A stretch of DNA of 64,000 bases from an uncultured Deferribacteraceae bacterium (GTDB lineage Bacteria; Chrysiogenota; Deferribacteres; Deferribacterales; Mucispirillaceae). The position numbers and the translations under genes are program-made. The stretch is taken from assembly GCA_947041165.1 (NCBI GenBank), contig CAMRCY010000003.1, positions 24,257 through 88,256 of the forward strand, given 5' to 3'. The notes under the pieces are model-generated. The model did not search any database, was not told the DNA's origin, and worked only from the letters and a program-made list of their open reading frames with translations. Shown in pieces: positions 21,556 through 33,790 of this stretch (within the stretch, counting starts at the first letter, position 1; each line of letters begins with the position of its first letter).

Positions 21556-22533
21556 TTAAATTACCGCCTTTCCTCTAAAATCATCTATAGACTTAAACGA
21601 CTTACTATTCATATAATCTCTTAACTCATTTGATATATTGATAGCAGCCGATGGATCAGTAAAGTTGGCTGTTCCAACTTGTACAATATCTGCTCCTGCT
21701 AGGATAAACTCTGCGGCATCATTACCTGTCATAATTCCACCCATACCGATGATAGGTATTTTAACAGTACTAAACGCTTCATAAACCATTCGTAGTGCAA
21801 CAGGCTTTATTGCAGGGCCTGACAATCCACCTGTTTTATTTGCAAGCACTGGTTTGAACTTATGAATATCAATCGCCATACCTATCAAGGTGTTAATCAA
21901 TGATACAGAATCAGCACCCTCAACTTCTACAACTTTTAGATACTCTTTTATATCAGTAACATTTGGTGACAATTTAACTATCAACGGTTTGTTGCGAACA
22001 ACTTTACGAACCTTGCTTACAATTTCACTTGTGGCAATAGGTGTTGATGAAAATGATATTCCACCATCTTTAATATTTGGACAAGATATATTCATCTCCA
22101 ACATATCAACGCCATCTGTATCATCTAATATCTCAGCTACTTTAAGATATTCATCAATACTTTTTCCCCAAAAATTAACTATAATATTTGTATCAAAACT
22201 TTTTAATATCGGCAATTTTTCAGCAATAAAAGATTTGACACCAACATTTTGTAAACCGATCGCATTTAATAATCCTGACGCTGTTTCAACTATTCTAGGC
22301 ATAGGATTACCTTCAACTGGTTCAAGCGAGATCCCCTTAATAGATATCCCACCTAATAAATTTAGATCCATAAAACGGATAAACTCTAATCCATATCCAA
22401 AAGTTCCAGATGCTGTAATTATTGGAGTTTTGAATTTTATACCACAAATTATTTTCTCTAATATGTTTATTCCATGGTTATCACTATTATTATTTTTGTT
22501 GTGATCGTTATTATTATTTTGATTATTATTCAT
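21556..22533 (-). CDS. pyrD: dihydroorotate dehydrogenase, class 1B catalytic subunit, with Asn-rich N-terminal extension
   Basis: 325 aa; KTPIITASGTFGYG, NAIGLQNVG motifs; preceded by MNNNQNNNNDHNKNNNSDNHG low-complexity extension. Confidence 0.85.
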   Translation of the reverse strand: MNNNQNNNNDHNKNNNSDNHGINILEKIICGIKFKTPIITASGTFGYGLEFIRFMDLNLLGGISIKGISLEPVEGNPMPRIVETASGLLNAIGLQNVGVKSFIAEKLPILKSFDTNIIVNFWGKSIDEYLKVAEILDDTDGVDMLEMNISCPNIKDGGISFSSTPIATSEIVSKVRKVVRNKPLIVKLSPNVTDIKEYLKVVEVEGADSVSLINTLIGMAIDIHKFKPVLANKTGGLSGPAIKPVALRMVYEAFSTVKIPIIGMGGIMTGNDAAEFILAGADIVQVGTANFTDPSAAINISNELRDYMNSKSFKSIDDFRGKAVI

Positions 22534-23328
22534 CTATACCAACCTTTCAAACGCAATCTTTTTACCATCAAAAATAGGGCCTTCAACACAGCAACGTCTA
22601 TTAACAATCGTTCCATCATTATCTATAGTTGGAATAAGACAACCTAAACAAGCACCTATGCCACAACCCATTTTCGCCTCCATTGAGATTTCAATATCAA
22701 TCTTATCATCAATAGATGAAACAGCTTTAACAACAGCCGACAACATGCCAGTAGGTCCACAAGTATATACATTGTCAAACTTCTCACCACTTGCTAATAA
22801 AGGTTTCGTTACTAAACCTTTAAGTCCTAGCGATCCATCAAATGTTACTATCTCAAGATTATCATAACACGTTGATAAAAGATCTGTTGGTATGATATCG
22901 TTCTTAGTTGCACCACCATAAAATAATGTAACTTTGTTGCCGTTTGCTCTCAATGTTTTTCCTAAAATAATCATCGGAGCTATGCCTGCTCCACCTGCAA
23001 CTAGTGCTACATTTTTATTCTCGCATATTGTAAATTTTGTACCTAATGCACCTACAACATTAAGATCGTCACCCTCTTTCACAGCACCTAATGTTTTAGT
23101 AACTCTGCCTACAACTTGGTATATAAATAAAATTGTGTCGTTATCAAAAATATCTGCAATTGCGAACGCTCTATTGATTAATGGATCAGAATTTGTTTCA
23201 TCATTTATACGAGGCGATACCATAAAAAAATTACCAGCTTCACTGCTTTTTGATAACTCTTTTGACTCTATCACCATATAACCATATTTGTCGTTAATTT
23301 TGATATTTTTAATAACTTTTGCTTTCAT
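22534..23328 (-). CDS. pyrK: dihydroorotate dehydrogenase electron-transfer subunit PyrK
   Basis: 264 aa; FAD/NAD-binding domain plus C-terminal 2Fe-2S Cys cluster CGIGACLGC...RRCCVEGP; directly upstream of pyrD. Confidence 0.85.
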   Translation of the reverse strand: MKAKVIKNIKINDKYGYMVIESKELSKSSEAGNFFMVSPRINDETNSDPLINRAFAIADIFDNDTILFIYQVVGRVTKTLGAVKEGDDLNVVGALGTKFTICENKNVALVAGGAGIAPMIILGKTLRANGNKVTLFYGGATKNDIIPTDLLSTCYDNLEIVTFDGSLGLKGLVTKPLLASGEKFDNVYTCGPTGMLSAVVKAVSSIDDKIDIEISMEAKMGCGIGACLGCLIPTIDNDGTIVNRRCCVEGPIFDGKKIAFERLV

Positions 23329-23385
23329 AATCTCTCTACTAATTATTTATTTAATTTATACATTGAAAATAGTTTAACATAAAAA

Positions 23386-23499
23386 TTTGAAATATATTTA
23401 ATTGATTTATATTCTCTTCATAAGTAGCTTAATATCTAAAATATTTGAAATATATTTAATTGATTTTCATTCTCTTAACCAGTAGCTTAATATCTAAAA
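23386..23499. repeat. ~56-bp tandem duplicate (tttgaaatatatttaattgattt[a/t][t/c]attctctt..agtagcttaatatctaaaa)
   Basis: Two adjacent near-identical copies read directly; upstream of pyrK, downstream of ccoI. Confidence 0.85.
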
Positions 23500-23521
23500 A
23501 ATTTAAACCAATTTAACGAGG

Positions 23522-25954
23522 CTACTTTCTTAATCTTGATGAGTTTAGTATAACCATTAACGATGAAAAACTCATAAACGCAGCACTCATAACAGGATGA
23601 ATATAGCCTGCAACTGCAAGTGGGATCGCAACAAGATTATAAGAGAACGACCATAAAAGATTTTCCTTCATTATAGTTAAACTTTTTTTACATATTTTTT
23701 GAGCTTTATTAATTATAGTAAGATCATTTCTAAGCAATATTGCTGATGCTGACTCCATAGATATATCTGTAGAGTTTCTCATAGATATTCCAACCGATGC
23801 CTTAGTCAATGCAACAGCATCATTTACTCCGTCCCCGATCATACACGTCTTATTGATATCCTTTGATCTATCAATTATGTCAGCTTTATCAAACGGAGAT
23901 ATATCAGATATAATATCAATACTGATATCATTGCTCATTAACATATATTTAGCAGATGAATGATTATCCCCTGTTAATAAAGTAACCTTATTGCCATCAT
24001 CAACCAACCGATCAATAAAAGCTTTAGCTTCACTTCTAATCGTATCAGTTATTGCAAACACAGCAAAAAGTTTATTATCAATCGCCATCAATACAACAGT
24101 TTTACCCGTTGCAATATATGATTCCATTTTGCTTTTAATAACAGAGCTTTCTTCAACTTTGAAATCTTTCATCAACTTATGATTGCCGATTAAATATTTA
24201 ACATTGTCAACGTCAGCCTCAATCCCTTTTCCTGGATATTCGGTAGACTGAATACTGTTATCAACATCAACATACTCATCATCTTTAAATATAAAATTAG
24301 ATATAGATTTTGACGCAGGATGCATAGAGTTATATGTTATTTTTCCGATCGTATCAAACGAGTTCTTATACTCATCCAACATTAGATAATCTATAACTTT
24401 CATCTTGCTTTCAGTAATCGTTCCTGTCTTATCAAGATAGATATCATTCACCATCGCCATGCGTTCAATTGATTGTCCATTCTTAAATATAATACCTAAG
24501 TTCATAAGTTTTGATGTTGAGTTAATAATTGCAAGAGGTGTCGCAAGCCCCATCGCACAAGGACAAGCCACAACTATCACAGATACTGCACGCATTATAT
24601 TAGATGATAATTCACTATCTGAAAAAACCGTCCAACCGATAAATGTTAATATAGAAGTTAGAAGCATGATTGGAACAAAATAAGATATAAATTTGTCAGC
24701 AAAATTTTGAATATCAGCCTTGCTACTTTCTGCATCATCAACAGCTGCTGCAATCTTTGATAAAAAAGTGTCTTCACCTATTCTAATAGCTGTTGCAACT
24801 AATTTTCCAGATAAATTTATACTACCAGAATAGACTTCATCACCTTTACTTTTTGATACTGGTAACGGCTCGCCTGTCAACATTGACTCATTAATATCTG
24901 ATTCACCGTATACAATTTTTCCGTCAAGTGCAACAGATGACCCTTCTTCAACTAGGAACAGATCACCTACTTTCATCTCTTCAATGTTGATTGAAACAAC
25001 ATTCTCTAAGTCTTTAATATCTAAAACTTTTTTAACAGTGAGTGGACGCATATTTAATAGCTTGCTTACAGCATCTCCACCACGTTGTTTAGCTCCAGCT
25101 TCAATAAATCTTCCTAGCAGTATTAATGTTATAATCGTTGCTGCCGTATCAAAATAACTTTCATGACCTGTGAAAATAGCAACCACACTATATAGATATG
25201 CAGTCCCTGCTCCGATTGCAACAAGAGTATCCATCGTCCAGTGCCTATGCCTGGCTGCTTTTATTGAGTTTTTAAAAAATGGATACGCACAGTAGAAAAT
25301 AACTGGAGTAGCTAAAAGAAATGAAACATACTCAAAAAATGATCGTAACTTATCCTCTATTCCTTGAAAATATCCTGTATATAACGCACCAGAATATAAC
25401 ATCAATTGCATAGTTAAAAATACAGCTGTGATAAATCGATAGAAATAATCTTTACGTTCTTTATCAGCTGTCGATAAAATATCTGTTATAGGAAGTGGAC
25501 AGTATCCGAGTGATGTGATAATTGATAACATCTCATCAATAGAAATATCTAAAGGCGAAAAACGGATCTTAGCTTTATGGTTTGAATAATTTATTCTGAT
25601 AGATTTTATACGTCCATCATCAAGTAGCGATCTTTCAATTAACCAGATGCAACTTGCACAACGTATATTGTCGATGACGATAGATAACTCTATATCACCT
25701 TCTGGAAGTTTGGTTATTGATTTGTTGAAAAAATCTGAATTGATTTTGATCTGTTCAAAAGGTTTATAATCAGTCGCTGTACGTTTTACATAAAACGATG
25801 ACAATCCTTTAGATTCTATTAAGTCATATACAGCATTGCAACCGTCACAACAAAAATAAATGCCTCTCTCTTCATCAAAGACCGAGCCACTCACGTTTAT
25901 TAAACTGTTGCAATGTGCACAATATTTATCATTTTGTATCTTCGTCATCATCAT
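23522..25954 (-). CDS. ccoI: copper-translocating P1B-type ATPase, CcoI/FixI type
   Basis: 810 aa; N-terminal CAHCNS...FCCDGCNAVYDL FixI-type motif, CPC transmembrane metal site, DKTGT phosphorylation site, GDGVND; sits in the cco accessory cluster. Confidence 0.8.
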   Translation of the reverse strand: MMMTKIQNDKYCAHCNSLINVSGSVFDEERGIYFCCDGCNAVYDLIESKGLSSFYVKRTATDYKPFEQIKINSDFFNKSITKLPEGDIELSIVIDNIRCASCIWLIERSLLDDGRIKSIRINYSNHKAKIRFSPLDISIDEMLSIITSLGYCPLPITDILSTADKERKDYFYRFITAVFLTMQLMLYSGALYTGYFQGIEDKLRSFFEYVSFLLATPVIFYCAYPFFKNSIKAARHRHWTMDTLVAIGAGTAYLYSVVAIFTGHESYFDTAATIITLILLGRFIEAGAKQRGGDAVSKLLNMRPLTVKKVLDIKDLENVVSINIEEMKVGDLFLVEEGSSVALDGKIVYGESDINESMLTGEPLPVSKSKGDEVYSGSINLSGKLVATAIRIGEDTFLSKIAAAVDDAESSKADIQNFADKFISYFVPIMLLTSILTFIGWTVFSDSELSSNIMRAVSVIVVACPCAMGLATPLAIINSTSKLMNLGIIFKNGQSIERMAMVNDIYLDKTGTITESKMKVIDYLMLDEYKNSFDTIGKITYNSMHPASKSISNFIFKDDEYVDVDNSIQSTEYPGKGIEADVDNVKYLIGNHKLMKDFKVEESSVIKSKMESYIATGKTVVLMAIDNKLFAVFAITDTIRSEAKAFIDRLVDDGNKVTLLTGDNHSSAKYMLMSNDISIDIISDISPFDKADIIDRSKDINKTCMIGDGVNDAVALTKASVGISMRNSTDISMESASAILLRNDLTIINKAQKICKKSLTIMKENLLWSFSYNLVAIPLAVAGYIHPVMSAAFMSFSSLMVILNSSRLRK

Positions 25955-26081
25955 CTAACATTCGATATTTTGGAGCCTCTATATCATCAAACTGCTCTTT
26001 CTTGCTAGAGTAGATAAATATAACATAACCTGTTACACCTACAGCTAATGATAGTAATATAAGAATATATAAGCTAAACAT
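25929..26081 (-). CDS. ccoS: cbb3 oxidase maturation protein CcoS/FixS (50-aa micro-ORF, absent from ORF track)
   Basis: MFSLYILILLSLAVGVTGYVIFIYSSKKEQFDDIEAPKYRMLDDDDEDTK: single TM plus QFDD...R(M/I)L.DD acidic tail typical of CcoS; ATG 7 nt after ccoH stop, 3' end overlaps ccoI start by 26 nt. Confidence 0.6.
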   Translation of the reverse strand: MFSLYILILLSLAVGVTGYVIFIYSSKKEQFDDIEAPKYRMLDDDDEDTK

Positions 26082-26088
26082 AAACCTA

Positions 26089-26505
26089 CTACTTCTCGTG
26101 ATAATATGAAAAAACTACTGGAACACTACGCTCATCATTTAGATATACAACCTCTAAGTTATACCACCCTTTATTTATTGATGATAGCGAATCGTATATA
26201 AATGTGCCATTATCATTCTTAAAAGTGTAAGAATATTTCTTGATAGGTGCTTTTAAAATCACTGCAACTGGGATTTTGTTTTCTGCAAACGACGCTTTCA
26301 GTATCATAGAGTTGTTATCTCTTTCAAACCCATTAAACACAATATCTTTTCTATACTCTTTTTTAAATGCTTGATCGTTATCGTAATTTATACCATCAAC
26401 ATACTTGCTATTTGTTACCACTCCATCATGATGTTTTAAGGCTATCATAAGAGTTATCGCAGTTGTTATCACTCCAAAAGATACTAATAATATCATCGGT
26501 TTCAT
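26089..26505 (-). CDS. FixH/CcoH-like membrane-anchored protein
   Basis: 138 aa, N-terminal TM helix plus periplasmic domain; assigned mainly from position between ccoG and ccoS. Confidence 0.45.
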   Translation of the reverse strand: MKPMILLVSFGVITTAITLMIALKHHDGVVTNSKYVDGINYDNDQAFKKEYRKDIVFNGFERDNNSMILKASFAENKIPVAVILKAPIKKYSYTFKNDNGTFIYDSLSSINKGWYNLEVVYLNDERSVPVVFSYYHEK

Positions 26506-26573
26506 TTATTTAGTTACCCCTGTTTACTTTTTTAATTCTAATACTAATTTAAATCTATTTTCTATACTGTCTA

Positions 26574-27758
26574 TTAATTCAGATCTATCTCTTTTCTATA
26601 TCCAGACTCTGTTTCAATAAATACCTTTATATCTTCATTGTTGTTACTATTAACTGTGATTTTATATTCTTTTTTTATCTTTTCGCCAGCTCTTAAAATA
26701 GTGTTATCGGGAGAGATCTCCACATTAGCATTATCTGTGCTTAAACTTATCATAAGTGCTGAATCTCTTCTATTTTGATAATTTACATCTAAAATATAAG
26801 AACCGTTATCTTTCTCTAATCTTTTAAAATCTGACGTAAAAGACACAGGGATATTAAACCATACTAAATATATCAGATAAATAAAGAATGCAAGAGCTAT
26901 AATACCTGTGATAATTATATTTGGTCTAAATATGTTAAACTTAAAACCTGTTCCCCAATTATATTTCAATATAGATCGTTTACCTTTTTTAGATAACGCT
27001 TTATCGCACGCAATAATACATTTTTCACAGTAGAAACATGCAGCGTTCGGAGTTTCACGAGGATCAATATCCACAGGACAAACTTTAACACAAGCATTAC
27101 AATGAATACAATCTTCATCTCCATCTTTCATCATTCCAATAAACAGAGTGTCATTATCACTCATTACAGATTGGATTTTTGAATATGGACAAATATATTT
27201 ACACCACTTATATCTAAAAAATGCAAAATCAATAAATAAAAAGAACATAACCCCTATAAACATAGGAATTAAAATATGTGAATTTGATCCAGTAAATATC
27301 TTTAAGAAATCATATGGTGATGTAAAGAAGAAAAATAGAATTAAGGTTAATAAAAACGCACCCATAAATGATAGGTAAAATCTAGAAATTTTTTCACCTA
27401 AGAATGAGAGTTTCTTCTCTAACTTCATTATTATATTCAAAAAGATAGATTGTGGACATAAGATAGCACACCATATCTTTCCAAAAATTTGAGTAAACAT
27501 AATTAGAAGAAATATTAGTAAAAACATAAATATCGATGTTATAAAGAAATCGTCCATCTTTATAACTTGATTGAAAAAATAAAACTCAGCTGTAGATATA
27601 TTAAATCTTAACGCTGTATTACCGTTTGAAGTGATAATAAAAAGAGGTAGAACTGCAACCGCAATCAATATAACTGAAATAAGTTGAGTACGAAAAAGTA
27701 TCGGCAATTGCTTAACCTTTACTTTTACCCCATCATTGTTACTGCTATTTTTGTTCAT
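26574..27758 (-). CDS. ccoG: cbb3 oxidase accessory ferredoxin-like protein CcoG/FixG
   Basis: 394 aa; GKIWCAILCPQS and WCKYICPY motifs, two 4Fe-4S ferredoxin CxxCxxCxxxCP motifs (CIHCNACVKVCP; CFYCEKCIIAC), C-terminal periplasmic domain. Confidence 0.8.
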   Translation of the reverse strand: MNKNSSNNDGVKVKVKQLPILFRTQLISVILIAVAVLPLFIITSNGNTALRFNISTAEFYFFNQVIKMDDFFITSIFMFLLIFLLIMFTQIFGKIWCAILCPQSIFLNIIMKLEKKLSFLGEKISRFYLSFMGAFLLTLILFFFFTSPYDFLKIFTGSNSHILIPMFIGVMFFLFIDFAFFRYKWCKYICPYSKIQSVMSDNDTLFIGMMKDGDEDCIHCNACVKVCPVDIDPRETPNAACFYCEKCIIACDKALSKKGKRSILKYNWGTGFKFNIFRPNIIITGIIALAFFIYLIYLVWFNIPVSFTSDFKRLEKDNGSYILDVNYQNRRDSALMISLSTDNANVEISPDNTILRAGEKIKKEYKITVNSNNNEDIKVFIETESGYRKEIDLN

Positions 27759-27900
27759 CGTCTTTCAACATTTCATACTTAGGAGACTCAACAGTCTCTT
27801 TTCTTTTTGAAGAAAAATAGTAATATATAACTATTATCATTGCGATAATTAAAACACTACCTGTTACTAATAAAAATATTTCACTGCCACCAAATGTCAT
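27745..27900 (-). CDS. CcoS/CcoQ-like 51-aa membrane micro-ORF (absent from ORF track)
   Basis: MTFGGSEIFLLVTGSVLIIAMIIVIYYYFSSKRKETVESPKYEMLKDDEQK: single TM plus SKRK..PKYEML.DD tail paralogous to ccoS (PKYRML); AGGTG 8 nt upstream; overlaps ccoG start by 14 nt. Confidence 0.45.
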   Translation of the reverse strand: MTFGGSEIFLLVTGSVLIIAMIIVIYYYFSSKRKETVESPKYEMLKDDEQK

Positions 27901-27992
27901 AATACTGCACCTCATTATATAATATAATATTAAATATTATTGTTCGAATTCAACTAACTTTAAGCAAATTAAGCTAATTTAATTACGCTCAA

Positions 27993-28163
27993 TCAAACTA
28001 ACTTCAATCAAACTAACTTCAATTAAACTAACTTCAATTAAACTAACTTCAACGAAACTAACTTCAATAAACATAACTTCAACTAAACTAAGTTCAACTA
28101 AACTAACTTCAACGAAACTAAGCTCAACAAAACTAGCTAAATCAAAACTAGTTAAATCAAAAC
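27993..28163. repeat. 15-bp tandem repeat x ~11 (caaactaacttcaat and variants)
   Basis: Read directly; period 15, variants aaactaagttcaact / gaaactaagctcaac; intergenic inside the cco cluster. Confidence 0.9.
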
Positions 28164-28223
28164 CTTTTTAAACACCAATTAAATGAATAAAAAGTCTTTT
28201 TTCAATAATATACTAAATAATAA

Positions 28224-28265
28224 GATAAAGACTCTCTTTCTTATACTAATATAAGAAAGAGAGTT
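28224..28265 (-). terminator. hairpin (ctctctttcttata / tataagaaagagag) just downstream of the 65-aa cco ORF
   Basis: 14-bp perfect inverted repeat with 7-nt loop; only a weak T-run follows on the minus strand, so may be an attenuator or processing hairpin rather than a full terminator. Confidence 0.35.
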
Positions 28266-28290
28266 TAATAACAACTAATTAAGTTACTTC

Positions 28291-28488
28291 TTAATTAAGA
28301 TTTAATTTATCTAACGATTCTGTAAGCTCTTTATCTTGAGTCCACCCTGTAAATGCAGGAGTATACGAATAATAATAATACACACCCCAAACAATCAATG
28401 AAAGATAGAAAACAACCCATAATAACGGAAGTTTATGCGCAGTATCCTCTCTCGATAGACTTTCGACATCATCCTCTTCTATAGACAT
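28291..28488 (-). CDS. standalone CcoP N-terminal domain-like protein (FixP_N) / CcoQ-position small subunit
   Basis: 65 aa; HKLPLLWVVFYLSLIVWGVYYYYSYTPAFTGWTQDKEL parallels CcoP N-terminus (NPLPRWW...YLVLYPG...GWTQEK). Confidence 0.5.
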   Translation of the reverse strand: MSIEEDDVESLSREDTAHKLPLLWVVFYLSLIVWGVYYYYSYTPAFTGWTQDKELTESLDKLNLN

Positions 28489-28508
28489 AAATATTACCTC
28501 CAGTAAAG

Positions 28509-29459
28509 TTATTTATTCACACCACTATCAACAGCAGACATCTTTCTGTTAGTCGTAGTAGTTTTTGTTGCTGTTCTGTTCTTATTAGCAAGCTCTTTAG
28601 CGTATAACGCTAACTCCCACATTCTTCTCTTAGTCATAATACCGATGTGACTAGGCATTGTGTAAGGGATACCATTTGCTATACTCACAAATAAGTTACC
28701 ATCGATTATATCAGCAGGAATTACATCAGATAACGGTGCAGCAATATCTGTACCCTCTCCTGCAGTTCCGTGACATCCAGCACAATTATCAACAAATGCT
28801 ACTTTCGTTTCTGGTGAAACTGTAGACATTGGAGCCATTGTGTTTTCATAATCCAAATAATCAACTTTCACATATTGATTATCAGGAATATCTGATCCTA
28901 ATGACTGTAAATAAGCAGTAAGTGCTTCAAGTTCAGTTGAATTAGCAACTTGATCGATATCCTCTTGTGTATACGGATAGCTTAAAGCTTTCATAGATTT
29001 TTCAGCATCTACTGCATCAGCAGGTCTGTCAAGAAATGCGTATGAAGGCATATTTGATTTAGGAAAAAACGTTTGTGGTTTTTTAAGGTGCATAATTTGC
29101 CACTCATCAGAATATCTACCACCAGTTCTAGCTAAATCAGGACCAGTACGTTTAGAACCCCATAGAAATGGACGCTCATAGAACTCTTCGCCTGCTTTTG
29201 TATAATCACCATATCTAACAACATCTGCCGTTAAAGGACGAACCATCTGTGAATGACAGTTAACGCAACCTTCACGTTGATATATATTTCTACCTTCAAG
29301 CTCAATAGCTGTATACTCTTTTGTACTTGCAAGTTTTGGATGCATATCATCTCTTAGCAGAGGCATCGCCATAGTGATTACTGTCCCTACTAGAACAACT
29401 ACCGTCATGGCAATTACTAGAGGAATAATTTTACTATATATACTATTATCTTTACTCAT
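28509..29459 (-). CDS. ccoO: cbb3 oxidase mono-haem subunit CcoO fused to an extra C-terminal c-type cytochrome domain
   Basis: 316 aa; EGRNIYQREGCVNCHSQMVRPL...PFLWGSKRTGPDLARTGGRYSDEWQIMHL (CcoO signature) plus second CxxCH (CAGCHG) near C-terminus. Confidence 0.85.
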   Translation of the reverse strand: MSKDNSIYSKIIPLVIAMTVVVLVGTVITMAMPLLRDDMHPKLASTKEYTAIELEGRNIYQREGCVNCHSQMVRPLTADVVRYGDYTKAGEEFYERPFLWGSKRTGPDLARTGGRYSDEWQIMHLKKPQTFFPKSNMPSYAFLDRPADAVDAEKSMKALSYPYTQEDIDQVANSTELEALTAYLQSLGSDIPDNQYVKVDYLDYENTMAPMSTVSPETKVAFVDNCAGCHGTAGEGTDIAAPLSDVIPADIIDGNLFVSIANGIPYTMPSHIGIMTKRRMWELALYAKELANKNRTATKTTTTNRKMSAVDSGVNK

Positions 29460-29472
29460 TTTATCCCCCTCT

Positions 29473-30867
29473 CTATTTCGATGATTGCTCTCTTTTACCT
29501 TTTACAACCGTCATAATCAGAGTAAATAGGAAAAAGAGCATTCCAACAATAAATACTGCACCAGCTACAGTTCTCATCTGCCAGTACGGATAGTTACCAA
29601 CTAAAGTTTCCATGAAAGTGTACATCAATGTTCCATCATCATTATATGATTTCCACATTGCACCTTGACGAATACCTGTTATCCACATAGTGATAGAGAA
29701 AACAACTTGACCAACTAACACTAACCAAAAATGTGTATTAGCAAGCTTTTCGCTGTAAATTGTTGTGTTGTATATTTTAGTTACGATGTAATACATTGAT
29801 GCAGTAGTAACTAGTACCACCCATCCCATCGTTCCCATATGAACATGTCCTGGAACCCAATCTGTAAAGTGTATAAGCGAACTGATCGCTCTTATACCCT
29901 GAGATGGACCTTGTAATGTTTGAAGACCGTAGAATGTTATACCTAATATAAAAAACTTAGTTAAGTATTGTGAATTCATTTTTGACCAATCAGGTTGAAC
30001 AGTCATATAACCGTTGACAACTGATCCCCATGATGGAGCAATTAACGCTATAGTGAAAACTATACTTAATGTTTGCAACCAATCTGGAACTGGACTGTAA
30101 ACTAAGTGGTGAGCTCCTGTCCATAAATACATGAACACTAATGACCAAAATGAAATTATTGATAATCTATGACTATAAATAGGCATATTTGTAGATTTTG
30201 GAAGAAAATAGTAGAACATAGCTAATATCGGTGTTGTAAATAAGAAACCAACAGCGTTATGTCCATACCACCACTGAACATTTGCAGAGTTTAATCCGCT
30301 AAATATGTGGTAAGATTTCGTTAAAGATACAACTACAGGTAAGTTGTTAACTATATACAAGATAGCAACGGCAACTACAGTAACTAATATATACCATAAT
30401 GATACATACATATGCTTCTCTTTACGAGTTGCAATTGTTCCTATAACATTTACTGCGAATAAAACCCAGATGATAACAACACCGATATCTATAGGCCACT
30501 CAAACTCAGCATATTCTAATGATTGAGTATAACCCATGAAAAGTGTTATAGTTCCTGCAAGTATTCCAATGTTAAAAATAATAAGATTTGCTATAGCAAG
30601 TTTAGGAAATATTAGCGATCTTTTAGTTAATTTAGTGATGATATAGTAAAATACACCCATCTCAGCACCAATACCTAATCCATAAGCTAGAACATTTGTA
30701 TGAACCGTTCTTAATCTTCCGAAAGTAAAAAACTCTCCAAAGTTAAAAGCTGGTGCCCACATCTGTACAGATATTAGAAGACCTAATAATAAACCTATTA
30801 CTCCCCAAAACAATGACGAATAAATGTAACCCATCACAATTTTTGAATCAATTGATATCTCTTTCAT
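29473..30867 (-). CDS. ccoN: cbb3-type cytochrome c oxidase catalytic subunit I CcoN
   Basis: 464 aa, 12 TM; haem-copper oxidase His ligands (HNAVGF, HHLVYSPV..., HFTDWVPGHVHMGT). Confidence 0.9.
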   Translation of the reverse strand: MKEISIDSKIVMGYIYSSLFWGVIGLLLGLLISVQMWAPAFNFGEFFTFGRLRTVHTNVLAYGLGIGAEMGVFYYIITKLTKRSLIFPKLAIANLIIFNIGILAGTITLFMGYTQSLEYAEFEWPIDIGVVIIWVLFAVNVIGTIATRKEKHMYVSLWYILVTVVAVAILYIVNNLPVVVSLTKSYHIFSGLNSANVQWWYGHNAVGFLFTTPILAMFYYFLPKSTNMPIYSHRLSIISFWSLVFMYLWTGAHHLVYSPVPDWLQTLSIVFTIALIAPSWGSVVNGYMTVQPDWSKMNSQYLTKFFILGITFYGLQTLQGPSQGIRAISSLIHFTDWVPGHVHMGTMGWVVLVTTASMYYIVTKIYNTTIYSEKLANTHFWLVLVGQVVFSITMWITGIRQGAMWKSYNDDGTLMYTFMETLVGNYPYWQMRTVAGAVFIVGMLFFLFTLIMTVVKGKREQSSK

Positions 30868-31351
30868 AGTAACATACCCCTCCCTCCTAACGTAAACATA
30901 TATATAAGTGTTCTAAAAAAAACCTTAACAAAATCACGACTACTGAGAATATGACATAAAACAAATACTAAAATAGTCTTATTCCTTTGTATTGTACACA
31001 TATTTATATAGACAAGTCAATGATATATTTAGATATAAATAATGTTCATATATCTACTAACCTATTTATTTCATTATTTACAATTAACGAATTATTAATT
31101 AATAGAACTAGGTTAATAATTATGTTTTTTGACTTATAATTTATAGCCAATTTGTTTTGTGTATAGATCCTAAAAGAGTACAGGTTTGTAGTTTAAAATT
31201 TATAATCAGGAATTTTAAACTCTATTTAATTAATCTTAAACATTAAACTCTAAATATCACACATTATGTCTAAACGAACTACTCTTTAATAATTTTCTAA
31301 CACAAATAAATTTCATATAATTTACTTAATAAAACTTATTACCAAACTTTA

Positions 31352-32116
31352 TTAACCCTCATTGATATACTCTAAAAACTTTTTATGTAGAGTACTATTT
31401 GCAACGATGATCGAGTTAGTTTTAAGGTGTTGATCGCTACCATTTATATCACTTATTAATCCACCTGCTTCTGTTGCGATAATCGCACCTGCTGATATAT
31501 CCCACGGCTTAACTGCTCCCTCATAATATAGATCTAATGATCCTTTTGCAACGTAACAGGTATCTAACGCTGACGATCCTGATCTACGAGCATCTTGAGA
31601 TTTGTTAAGCAACTTTTCAAACTTTTTAACAACGCCTGGGAGTGTGCTTTTATCGTATGGAAAACCTGTTGCAAATAATGAGTGCGATAGATCATCTTCT
31701 TTCGATACAGATATCGCCGTACCGTTACAAAATGCACCACAACCTTTTTGAGCGTAGAACATCTCTTTTAATATAGGATTATACACAACACCGATATCAC
31801 CTAATGAGTCGGTATATACTCCAATTGATACCGCTACAAACGGATATGAATGAACAAAATTTGTCGTGCCATCAATCGGATCTATATAGATAATATTAGG
31901 TGCTTGATTAGATGTATCGGTTGTAGACTCTTCACCCATTATTTGATAGCTTGGATATAGTTTGCGAATTCTATCCACAACAAAATCTTCAACCATAACA
32001 TCGTACTGTGTCACAAGATCTGACGCTCCTTTATACCTTACTTCCTTATTTTTATAAAACCCTTCAAGTATAATTTGTCCTGCTTCTTCTGCGATCTCCA
32101 TAACTTTTTTTAACAT
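31352..32116 (-). CDS. inositol monophosphatase family protein (SuhB/CysQ-like)
   Basis: 254 aa; IDPIDGTTNFVH and WDISAGAIIATEAGG motifs. Confidence 0.8.
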   Translation of the reverse strand: MLKKVMEIAEEAGQIILEGFYKNKEVRYKGASDLVTQYDVMVEDFVVDRIRKLYPSYQIMGEESTTDTSNQAPNIIYIDPIDGTTNFVHSYPFVAVSIGVYTDSLGDIGVVYNPILKEMFYAQKGCGAFCNGTAISVSKEDDLSHSLFATGFPYDKSTLPGVVKKFEKLLNKSQDARRSGSSALDTCYVAKGSLDLYYEGAVKPWDISAGAIIATEAGGLISDINGSDQHLKTNSIIVANSTLHKKFLEYINEG

Positions 32117-32384: not shown

Positions 32385-33566
32385 ATGAATGATAATAACA
32401 ATATAGATTTAACAAAATTAGATTATGATATACCGATAGAAGAATGTTTCAATGCACTTATACCACATCCAAAATTTACAGGTTGTACATTTGATAACTA
32501 TAAAGAAGATATGAATTACCCGTCACAATTATATCTTAAAAACAAGTTAAAAGAGATACCTGTAAACAATAGTAAGAAGAAACCTTTTTCACTCAAAACA
32601 ATATTTGGTGGGAAAAAAGATATCACAGAAAACATCTATATCGATGGAACTTACGGTATCGGTAAAACTCATTTGCTCTCTGCCCTATTCCACTTTTTTG
32701 ATGATAGTAAAGCGTTCTTATCTTTTCTTGAACTAACTTATTTTATAAACTATTACGGACTAGAAAAAACTATTGAAGAGTTTAAAAAAGTTAAACTACT
32801 TCTGTTAGATGAGTTTGATTTAGACGATCCTGCAACAACACGAATGATGGCGAGATTTATATCTGAAGTTAATCCATACACAACAATTGTGACAACATCA
32901 AACAGACTTCCAAAAGAGCTTGGAGGAACAAATTTTGATACAGGAGCGTTCGCAAGAGAGCTTGGCATAATTGCAGATTCATTCACAACAATCGTTGTTG
33001 ATGGAGAATCATTTAGAATAAAATTAGGCAAATGGCAAGCAAGCTACTCTGATAACAATTTTCATGATGTGTATAAAAATTTTATGGCTGGTATTGGTTT
33101 AGATAAGGCTGATGCAAGTATGAACAATGTTAATGCTAGTAATAAAATTGATGCAAGTATGAACCATGTTAATGCGAGTAATAAAGTTGATGTAAGTGCG
33201 AACAATATTAATGCGAGTAATAAAGTTGATGCGAGTAGCAAAACAAATAACAGTATAAGTAAAATCAAATATGAAGAGTTAAATAAGATATTGCAAGCTA
33301 ACCATCCGTTTAAGTTTTTTGTAATACCTAACAATGTATCGGTGTTATTTATAGAAGAGTTTGAAGGGTTTACAAAGTTAACAGATGCGTTAAGGTTTTC
33401 AGTTTTTGTAGATCACTGTTACTACTATGATACAAAATTATTTTTCGATAAAGAGATGGATAGAAGCACCTTATTCCCTAAAGAAATTCTTGAAACAACG
33501 TTTGAAAGACAGTTCTTAAGATGCTTATCACGACTTGATGAAATGGCGATATTTTTTAAAGGATAA
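32385..33566 (+). CDS. AFG1/ZapE-like ATPase carrying an in-frame 12-aa tandem-repeat insertion
   Basis: 393 aa; Walker A DGTYGIGKTHLL, Walker B-like KLLLLDEFDLDD; (DASMNNVNASNK)x~4 insertion. Confidence 0.5.
   Translation: MNDNNNIDLTKLDYDIPIEECFNALIPHPKFTGCTFDNYKEDMNYPSQLYLKNKLKEIPVNNSKKKPFSLKTIFGGKKDITENIYIDGTYGIGKTHLLSALFHFFDDSKAFLSFLELTYFINYYGLEKTIEEFKKVKLLLLDEFDLDDPATTRMMARFISEVNPYTTIVTTSNRLPKELGGTNFDTGAFARELGIIADSFTTIVVDGESFRIKLGKWQASYSDNNFHDVYKNFMAGIGLDKADASMNNVNASNKIDASMNHVNASNKVDVSANNINASNKVDASSKTNNSISKIKYEELNKILQANHPFKFFVIPNNVSVLFIEEFEGFTKLTDALRFSVFVDHCYYYDTKLFFDKEMDRSTLFPKEILETTFERQFLRCLSRLDEMAIFFKG
33111..33245 (+). repeat. 36-bp in-frame coding tandem repeat x ~3.7 encoding (I/V)DASMN(N/H)VNASNK
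   Basis: gatgcaagtatgaacaatgttaatgctagtaataaaatt repeated with few substitutions, read directly. Confidence 0.9.
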
Positions 33567-33569
33567 TGT

Positions 33570-33790
33570 TAACTTAAGTTATCTTATATTAATTGATATT
33601 TAGTTAAGTTATCTTATATTGACTAATGTTTAAATAAGTTTAATTAAGTTATCTTAGTTTGATTAATGTTTAGTTTAGTTTAGTTTAGTTTAGTTTAGTT
33701 ACCTTATAATATTTATATTTAGTTAAGATAAGTTATCTCAGATTGATTATATTTAGACAAGTTATTTTAGAATTATTTATTGAGTAGAAT
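33570..33790. repeat. intergenic repeat cluster: reiterated 'taagttatcttat(a/g)tt' motifs and (tttag)x6 pentanucleotide run
   Basis: gtttagtttagtttagtttagtttagtt at ~33676-33705 plus 4-5 copies of taagttatct motif. Confidence 0.8.

Follow-up and report, generated by a model that had tools for sequence, protein, structure and literature searches.

The window analysed here is a stretch of 64,000 nucleotides (64 kb; 31% GC) from contig CAMRCY010000003.1 of an uncultured Deferribacteraceae bacterium. Between 23522 and 30867, all on the minus strand, it carries a cluster of cytochrome cbb3 oxidase (cco) genes that we consider likely to encode a complete, functional oxidase of a Deferribacterota/Nitrospirota layout. 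Genes for copper and cofactor maturation accompany those of the enzyme, and the whole appears to make up two transcription units. The cluster has a CcoO fused to an additional cytochrome c domain and a haem-less protein of 65 amino acids (aa) probably related to the membrane anchor of CcoP. The open reading frames (ORFs) and gene order described in an earlier note, made from the letters of the window, were all present on this strand at the following positions.

29473–30867, minus strand: ccoN, 464 aa, catalytic subunit I of a C-family (cbb3) haem-copper oxidase
28509–29459, minus strand: ccoO with a monohaem cytochrome c domain fused at its C-terminal end (CcoO~c), 316 aa
28291–28488, minus strand: gene for the haem-less CcoP′, a probable one-helix FixP_N anchor homologue, 65 aa
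27745–27900, minus strand: ccoQ-like gene, 51 aa, single transmembrane (TM) helix and acidic tail ..SSKRKETVESPKYEMLKDDEQK
26574–27758, minus strand: probable ccoG, membrane polyferredoxin with Fer4_18 and Fer4_5 domains and a conserved position, 394 aa
26089–26505, minus strand: ccoH (FixH family), 138 aa
25929–26081, minus strand: ccoS (FixS), 50 aa
23522–25954, minus strand: ccoI, copper-translocating P1B-type ATPase, 810 aa

CcoN and the fused CcoO

CcoN passes the Pfam COX1 model (PF00115; E 2.1e-101, 340 bits, cutoff 34.8). Its match to TIGR00780 (E 5.1e-150, 500.5 bits) lies under the equivalog cutoff of 583.15, and relative to that model it is, to judge from these scores, a divergent, non-proteobacterial member. 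Every haem and CuB ligand is retained, the six histidines serving haem b (two), haem b3 (one) and CuB (three), as is the cross-linked C-family tyrosine of helix 7: H56, H203, Y247, H253, H254, H341 and H343 are invariant against eight other CcoN sequences, that of Pseudomonas included (we take the mapping onto Pseudomonas stutzeri numbering to be +4). The closest locus among the matches listed is L001, from an uncultured Deferribacteraceae metagenome-assembled genome (MAG) with 89% CcoO identity; the 31% GC of the window is in keeping with a host-associated member of this group. Against it the ratio of non-synonymous to synonymous substitution rates (dN/dS) is 0.06 for ccoN and 0.15 for the fused ccoO; both genes are under purifying selection.

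The core of CcoO takes up residues 1–195, with a haem site at C65-x-x-C68-H69; the extra domain lies at residues about 210–300 (nucleotides (nt) 28560–28832) and has C226-x-x-C229-H230 and axial M268. Pfam FixO (PF02433; 2.4e-62, 210.7 bits, cutoff 29.6) and NF011055 (226.2 bits, above its cutoff of 218) both recognise the protein, its C-terminal domain matches Pfam Cytochrome_CBB3 (1.6e-08), and NF011054 aligns with it over 2–291 of 294 model positions (E 2.2e-99). Both haem motifs and M268 are invariant across 89 homologues, and the AlphaFold2 model built on the alignment of these has a predicted local distance difference test (pLDDT) score of 83 and a predicted template modelling (pTM) score of 0.76, the C-terminal domain scoring >90. 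By Foldseek, residues 1–195 match chains 3mk7_B (E 7e-12), 8smr_F, 9g6b_B and 6xkw_o with 44–49% identity, and the fused C-terminal part resembles small class-I cytochromes c (kustc0562/0563, TM score about 0.78); no solved chain spanning both parts was found by this search. The earlier note had read an extra C-terminal CxxCH domain in CcoO. The FixO and Cytochrome_CBB3 matches, the model and the fold search agree with it, and we judge from them that the addition is a genuine class-I cytochrome c domain. The window protein shows about 50% identity with the named proteins from Deferribacter and ends in a 20-residue Thr/Lys-rich tail that they do not have.

The 65-aa protein, a probable haem-less CcoP′

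The gene for the 65-aa protein follows a GGAGGT Shine-Dalgarno sequence 8 nt upstream of its start. The protein contains zero cysteines, and so no CxxCH of the two-haem CcoP type described by TIGR00782, a model that it matches in the anchor region only (E 0.017). FixP_N is matched by six of its seven orthologues (best 9.1e-08), and a profile of the family run against the PDB found the CcoP chains 9g83_v, 8smr_G and 3mk7_C in the right region (E 0.04–0.16). When it is aligned with residues 1–110 of seven CcoP proteins from proteobacteria, it falls over ..G-IEEYDNPLPxWWxxLF...Y..YP....GWTQ.., the segment comprising the second TM helix of Pseudomonas CcoP and its flanks. Judged by eye, the match to Pseudomonas CcoP is convincing. 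On the evidence of its orthologues the protein is most simply read as a stand-alone, haem-less N-terminal module of CcoP, in agreement with the earlier note.

Residues L20, P21, W24, Y38 and P44 are invariant in the mini-proteins and in proteobacterial CcoP alike; within the 65-aa family the residues invariant over three phyla are D15, T16, K19, L20, P21, W24, Y37, Y38, P44, G48, W49 and Q51. D15 falls opposite the second Glu of IEEYDNPLP, and the position is acidic in all mini-proteins (E in L008). In the P. stutzeri structure described by Buschmann and colleagues in 2010, Glu49 reportedly sits where the proton pathway begins, and we presume that the second Glu of the motif is this Glu49 at the pathway mouth, which we offer as a lead and not a result.

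An exhaustive HMMER search over 1.84 billion cluster representatives gave 34 clusters at E <= 0.001 for the family. Most are stand-alone proteins of 58–102 aa, and four of the 34 are proteins of 160–171 aa with one added CxxCH domain, that is, monohaem CcoP. The window gene has a dN/dS of 0.18 against L001. Designed pentatricopeptide-repeat proteins headed the PDB profile hits of the 65-aa family; we rejected them as an artefact of many tiny per-repeat scores being summed, the relevant CcoP chains standing lower in the list (E 0.04–0.6).

Outside CcoO, no CxxCH was found in any ORF of at least 50 aa across the 64-kb window, nor in any frame of the 375-bp spacer that separates the 65-aa gene from the next ORF on its 3′ side. 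A frameshifted ccoP is excluded by these two results, and no relic of ccoP occurs within the window; the statement that a conventional dihaem CcoP is missing thus holds for the 64 kb, and a frameshift-hidden copy, which the earlier note had suggested as a way in which it might be wrong, was looked for and is absent. We also considered that the layout as a whole might be an assembly or sequencing artefact, either through such a frameshift or through a lost stop codon joining ccoO to a cytochrome c gene. This is scarcely credible. Identical CcoO protein and layout occur on eight independent contigs, and when relatives of the fused CcoO were searched in a collection of 5.8 billion proteins, 120 of the best 120 carried PF02433 and PF13442 (FixO plus cytochrome c), with proteins of Deferribacter, Denitrovibrio, Deferribacterales and Thermodesulfovibrionales among them. 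The isolate genome behind locus L082 (Deferribacter autotrophicus) has the same architecture, and directly after the 65-aa gene comes a terminator-like hairpin.

The third subunit might instead be a mono- or dihaem CcoP encoded outside the window, the 65-aa protein then being an accessory or alternative anchor. The search covered 64 kb, and related anaerobes often have orphan homologues of ccoP (PMC8235581). Two Desulfuromonadales-type loci, L006 (7989–9492) and L009 (7947–9460), do encode a fused dihaem CcoO alongside a FixQ-like peptide and a monohaem CcoP of 158–160 aa, so that their three c haems are split 2+1 instead of 1+2. In these two, however, the monohaem CcoP itself carries FixP_N and there is no separate mini-protein, which implies one anchor site per complex, a site that the 65-aa protein would occupy here; and none of about 10 Deferribacterota or Nitrospirota loci has a ccoP in the cluster. 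We regard an outside CcoP as improbable and prefer the 65-aa protein as occupant of the site.

The CcoQ-like protein and CcoS

The 51-aa gene lies within a 56-aa ORF (27745–27915), the real start being the ATG at 27900, with a GAGGTG Shine-Dalgarno sequence 7 nt upstream; public gene callers likewise give 51 aa. It overlaps the start of ccoG by 14 nt. FixQ is matched by 11 of 11 orthologues (best 1.1e-08) and FixS by one of the 11 (0.038), and Pfam gave no FixS match for the window protein. Six synonymous changes and one replacement separate the gene from that of L001 (dN/dS 0.03). CcoS itself, 50 aa, is well above cutoff for FixS (PF03597; 1.3e-14, 54.1 bits, cutoff 23.1) and TIGR00847 (40.7 bits, cutoff 28.35), and its gene overlaps the longest ccoI ORF by 26 nt, both as the earlier note had it.

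That note called the 51-aa protein CcoS/CcoQ-like and counted it as a duplicated CcoS. A second, diverged CcoS with a role in cofactor insertion has some points for it: the protein shares a C-terminal (E/D)xPKYxML(x)DD(D/E) with the CcoS of the same lineages, phmmer within a local database of 200 sequences relates it to CcoS at ~1e-07 and to Pseudomonas CcoQ only at ~1e-04, and its gene is coupled in translation to ccoG, which belongs to the maturation set. Against these stand the FixQ and FixS counts among orthologues, the YSSKRK motif, which corresponds to WAYSSKRK of Pseudomonas CcoQ, an orthologous group separate from the bona fide CcoS that is present in every locus, and a position directly 3′ of ccoO/ccoP′ in L082, L083 and L087, the Deferribacter and Denitrovibrio loci among them. 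A second CcoS is thus unlikely; the CcoQ half of the label is favoured over the CcoS half and the duplication, and the orthologues point to a protein of CcoQ/FixQ type encoded at the place of ccoQ after the structural genes.

In these lineages a C-terminal (E/D)xPKYxMLxDD motif is common to CcoS and the CcoQ-like protein; Pseudomonas CcoQ and CcoS do not have it in such a form. The motif may reflect a distant relationship between the FixQ and FixS families or a binding partner common to both tails.

The small genes were described in the earlier note as unannotated, which is correct relative to its 60-aa ORF cutoff alone: public gene callers call all three, and all small cco genes are called in public assemblies of the same organism and of relatives. 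In Deferribacterota, Nitrospirota and Geobacter MAG loci both the length and the sequence of the 65-aa and 51-aa genes are conserved, so the lack of conservation that the note had thought might undo its reading was not found. Purifying selection, conservation and the gene calls together establish the micro-ORFs as real genes.

A further reading is that the cluster is degenerate or partial, having lost ccoP and ccoQ, with the 65-aa ORF a decaying stump and the product either inactive or a bare CcoNO core. The Deferribacter orthologues have been described in this manner: a 2026 comparative-genomics paper calls their cbb3 genes "only partially encoded" and ccoP/ccoQ "not evidenced" (PMC13186404, section 'Respiratory chain'), and the small window proteins are sub-threshold for Pfam when taken singly. 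Decay is nevertheless very unlikely, given that the 65-aa and 51-aa genes are conserved across three lineages with the low dN/dS values above, have strong Shine-Dalgarno sites and have orthologues that match FixP_N and FixQ, that the CcoN ligands are intact and the full ccoGHSI maturation set is kept, and that the extra haem domain of CcoO would compensate for the missing haems of CcoP. L082, the locus behind the published statement, encodes the fused CcoO and has genes of FixP_N and FixQ-like type, and our data argue against its "partial" reading in favour of a complete variant.

Maturation genes

CcoG is above cutoff for Fer4_18 (63.7 bits, cutoff 27) and Fer4_5. At 394 aa it is shorter than canonical CcoG, and its cluster position is the same in all related loci. 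CcoG is a cupric reductase in model organisms. CcoH reaches 23.4 bits with Pfam FixH (PF05751; cutoff 23); FixH is matched by nine of nine orthologues of this 138-aa protein (best 6.6e-24), and hhalign of the family against Pseudomonas-type CcoH gave a probability of 97%, which bears out the FixH-like gene of the earlier note. CcoI is above cutoff for TIGR01511 (3e-144, 481.9 bits, cutoff 397) and TIGR01525 (7e-153), and has an N-terminal ATPase-cat_bd domain (PF12156; 2.7e-09, 38 bits, cutoff 27).

Related loci

Among the matches listed by a scan of genome contigs for CcoO, most were proteobacterial and ~9 were useful loci; the window's own genome was not among them. The order N, O~c, P′, Q-like, G, H, S, I recurs in D. 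autotrophicus (L082), in a Denitrovibrio MAG (L087), in metagenome loci L081, L083/84 and L089, and in other assemblies of the window's organism (L085/86). In Nitrospirota and Geobacter MAG loci (L002, L003, L005, L088) the structural part is the same, and ccoI precedes ccoS. The placing of ccoS before ccoI had been thought unusual; it is common to every Deferribacterota-like locus examined and is therefore a lineage trait, not a local rearrangement. Nor is the layout at large the oddity it had been taken for: it is conserved in Deferribacterota and, with small changes, in Nitrospirota, some Desulfuromonadales and Geobacter, and the fused CcoO has a model of its own in NF011054. The window CcoO is a divergent member of this family already modelled by NCBI, in a lineage-typical layout.

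Locus L008 (7989–8791, Nitrospirota MAG Fractures_MAG_07) has an unfused CcoO of 194 aa followed by a 65-aa haem-less FixP_N protein, and would have one c haem in total, barring a cytochrome encoded elsewhere. Set beside L006/L009 and the window, it suggests a modular reshuffling of the electron-entry module, and the gene contents can be arranged in a putative graded series: dihaem CcoP; fused CcoO with monohaem CcoP; fused CcoO with haem-less CcoP; plain CcoO with haem-less CcoP.

It is about an even call whether the 65-aa protein belongs to the enzyme as a true subunit, namely as a CcoP that has lost all its redox cofactors and been retained solely for its membrane helix. If it is, the series would be a natural dissection of CcoP, showing the anchor to be essential for proton entry or complex stability apart from electron transfer, and would define a two-c-haem, possibly a one-c-haem, subclass of cbb3 oxidases.

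In Nitrospirota loci a conserved single-helix micro-ORF of 31–34 aa (MDISILATIAFTAIPT...RKRK) separates the FixP_N gene from the FixQ-like gene (L002 9220–9315, L005 9221–9316, L088 8206–8310). Its peptide is fused to FixP_N in 93–102-aa proteins from GC-rich genomes (P0129, P0131, P0134, P0136–P0138), and it is absent from the window.

Proposed mechanism

CcoN would hold haem b and the haem b3-CuB site. The TM helix of canonical CcoP, with its flanking motifs, packs against CcoN, and the 65-aa helix would most likely occupy this anchor site; the 51-aa protein may take the CcoQ role in stabilisation or assembly. The canonical electron path runs cp2 → cp1 → co → b → b3-CuB (PMC7876108). Here the cytochrome c domain fused to CcoO would take over the electron-entry role of the proteobacterial CcoP haem domains. 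A periplasmic donor would pass electrons to this fused haem c, from which they would reach the CcoO haem c and after it haem b and haem b3-CuB; the complex would have two c haems instead of three. In model organisms ccoG acts in copper reduction, ccoH in assembly, ccoS in cofactor insertion and ccoI in copper export (PMC8267372), and the four genes of the cluster would supply the same functions.

Several points weigh against a complete oxidase of this composition. Four assignments lean on orthologues and synteny because the window proteins themselves are sub-threshold: the 65-aa protein against FixP_N (PF14715; E 0.16, 12.2 bits, cutoff 24.9), the 51-aa protein against FixQ (PF05545; E 5e-04 to 7e-04, 20.3 bits, cutoff 29), CcoG against TIGR02745 (1e-42, 146.6 bits, equivalog cutoff 316.7), and the fused CcoO against NF011054 (332.7 bits, curated equivalog cutoff 447), a model passed by the fused CcoO of D. 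autotrophicus (447.9) and Denitrovibrio (451). The ancestry of the fused domain is ambiguous, since family members match either half of TIGR00782 (the window protein at model positions 207–284, relatives P0111 and L003 at 93–194), and it could descend from the proximal (cp1) or the distal (cp2) haem domain of CcoP. CcoQ is not present in the mature or solved Pseudomonas complexes (PMC10556555), which makes the subunit status of the 51-aa protein uncertain. A dihaem CcoP may be encoded elsewhere in the genome, our search covering the 64-kb window. The fold search found no solved structure with this subunit composition, we found no biochemical study of the layout in the literature, and both assembly of the proteins and activity of the enzyme are predictions from the genes alone.

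Transcription units and the spacer repeat

30991–31020, minus strand: promoter-like site TTGACT-18-TACAAT, ~125 nt 5′ of ccoN, 10/12 consensus matches
28231–28264, minus strand: intrinsic-terminator-like hairpin, 15-bp stem and T-rich tail
27995–28163, no strand: 15-bp variable-number tandem repeat (VNTR), about 9–11 copies, unit GTTGAAGTTAGTTTA on the minus strand
27924–27953, minus strand: promoter-like site TTGAAT-18-TATTAT, 5′ of the ccoQ-like gene, 9/12 consensus matches

The cluster appears to form two transcription units, ccoN, ccoO~c and ccoP′ in one and the ccoQ-like gene, ccoG, ccoH, ccoS and ccoI in the other. The hairpin, a putative terminator, would close the first; it is kept in L001 with stem-preserving changes. 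The promoter-like sites are only suggestive, their count in the region being at chance level, not above that of shuffles in the promoter scan.

The 15-bp minisatellite of the earlier note was recovered by Tandem Repeats Finder at 27995–28135 (period 15, 9.4 copies, 89% matches), and the array runs on to 28163. The spacer of the window is identical to that of L085 (4160–4575); in L086 (4160–4680; same CcoO protein, same organism) it is longer by 105 bp, that is, by seven 15-bp units, and the sister species L001 (9164–9400) has no array while keeping the hairpin. Because copy number differs in L086 and the array is absent from L001, the repeat is a dispensable, strain-variable VNTR between transcription units. 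Gene callers place ORFs of 31 and 79 aa, encoding VEVSL repeats, on the array; we rejected a coding reading of these since L001 does without it.

Neighbouring genes

Upstream of ccoN in the window is an inositol-monophosphatase-family gene (31352–32116). An Rrf2-family regulator gene stands directly 5′ of ccoN in L082 (6128–6565), L087 (5141–5590), L002, L005, L008 and L088 and is missing in the window. Farther on, an ORF for an AFG1-family ATPase homologue (32385–33566, plus strand) contains an in-frame 39-bp repeat (33103–33237, 3.5 copies) that gives a low-complexity insert of the DASMNNVNASNK type, and the spacer at 33564–33756 has more AT-rich tandem repeats. At the other end, a 58-bp tandem repeat (23380–23507; 2.2 copies, 87% matches) separates the end of ccoI from the next gene, which encodes a dihydroorotate dehydrogenase electron-transfer subunit (22534–23328); the dihydroorotate dehydrogenase itself (21556–22533) has an Asn-rich N-terminal extension.

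Literature and significance

Published genome descriptions of Mucispirillum, Deferribacter, Deferribacterota from termite guts and Manganitrophus do no more than list a cbb3 oxidase. We found no paper on the layout with fused CcoO or haem-less CcoP in the literature covered, outside which lies the cluster-diversity survey of Ducluzeau et al. 2008. Pipelines and papers that seek ccoNOQP score the layout as incomplete, and recognising the variant parts would turn "partial" into "complete variant". Such re-annotation alters the predicted microaerobic respiration or O2 scavenging of Deferribacterota (those of gut and termite gut among them), Nitrospirota and metal reducers. The layout also separates the anchor function of CcoP from electron transfer, which is testable in culturable Deferribacter or Denitrovibrio. 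The window adds one more, fairly divergent, example, and is a pointer to an uncharacterised two-c-haem subclass of cbb3 oxidases and to a recurring annotation error.

Comparison with known systems

The nearest described family is NF011054 (bifunctional CcoO/cytochrome c), which has the same CcoO with one C-terminal CxxCH domain end to end; the window protein differs in scoring below the equivalog cutoff and in its Thr/Lys-rich tail. With the canonical proteobacterial clusters, ccoNOQP plus ccoGHIS (P. stutzeri 3MK7, P. aeruginosa 8SMR, Rhodobacter capsulatus 6XKW), the window has in common all CcoN ligands, a superimposable CcoO core, homologues of CcoH, S and I and probable ones of CcoQ and G. 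Unlike them it appears to have the CcoP anchor helix alone, with no haem domains and with the first N-terminal helix of Pseudomonas CcoP missing; its additional haem c domain is fused to CcoO, giving a predicted two c haems against three, and its gene order is N-O-P′-Q, G-H-S-I where the canonical one is N-O-Q-P, G-H-I-S.

The Desulfuromonadales-type clusters L006 and L009 share the fused CcoO (NF011054, 8.8e-120), the CcoQ-like peptide and the G/H maturation genes, but keep one CcoP haem domain and place ccoQ before ccoP and ccoI before ccoS. The Bacteroidota-type clusters (Polaribacter L061, Tenacibaculum L067; ccoS, fused ccoNO, ccoQ, ccoP, ccoG) are likewise non-proteobacterial, with fused subunits and with ccoS off its canonical position; there, in contrast, the fusion joins CcoN to CcoO (NF011053 type), and CcoP retains CxxCH.

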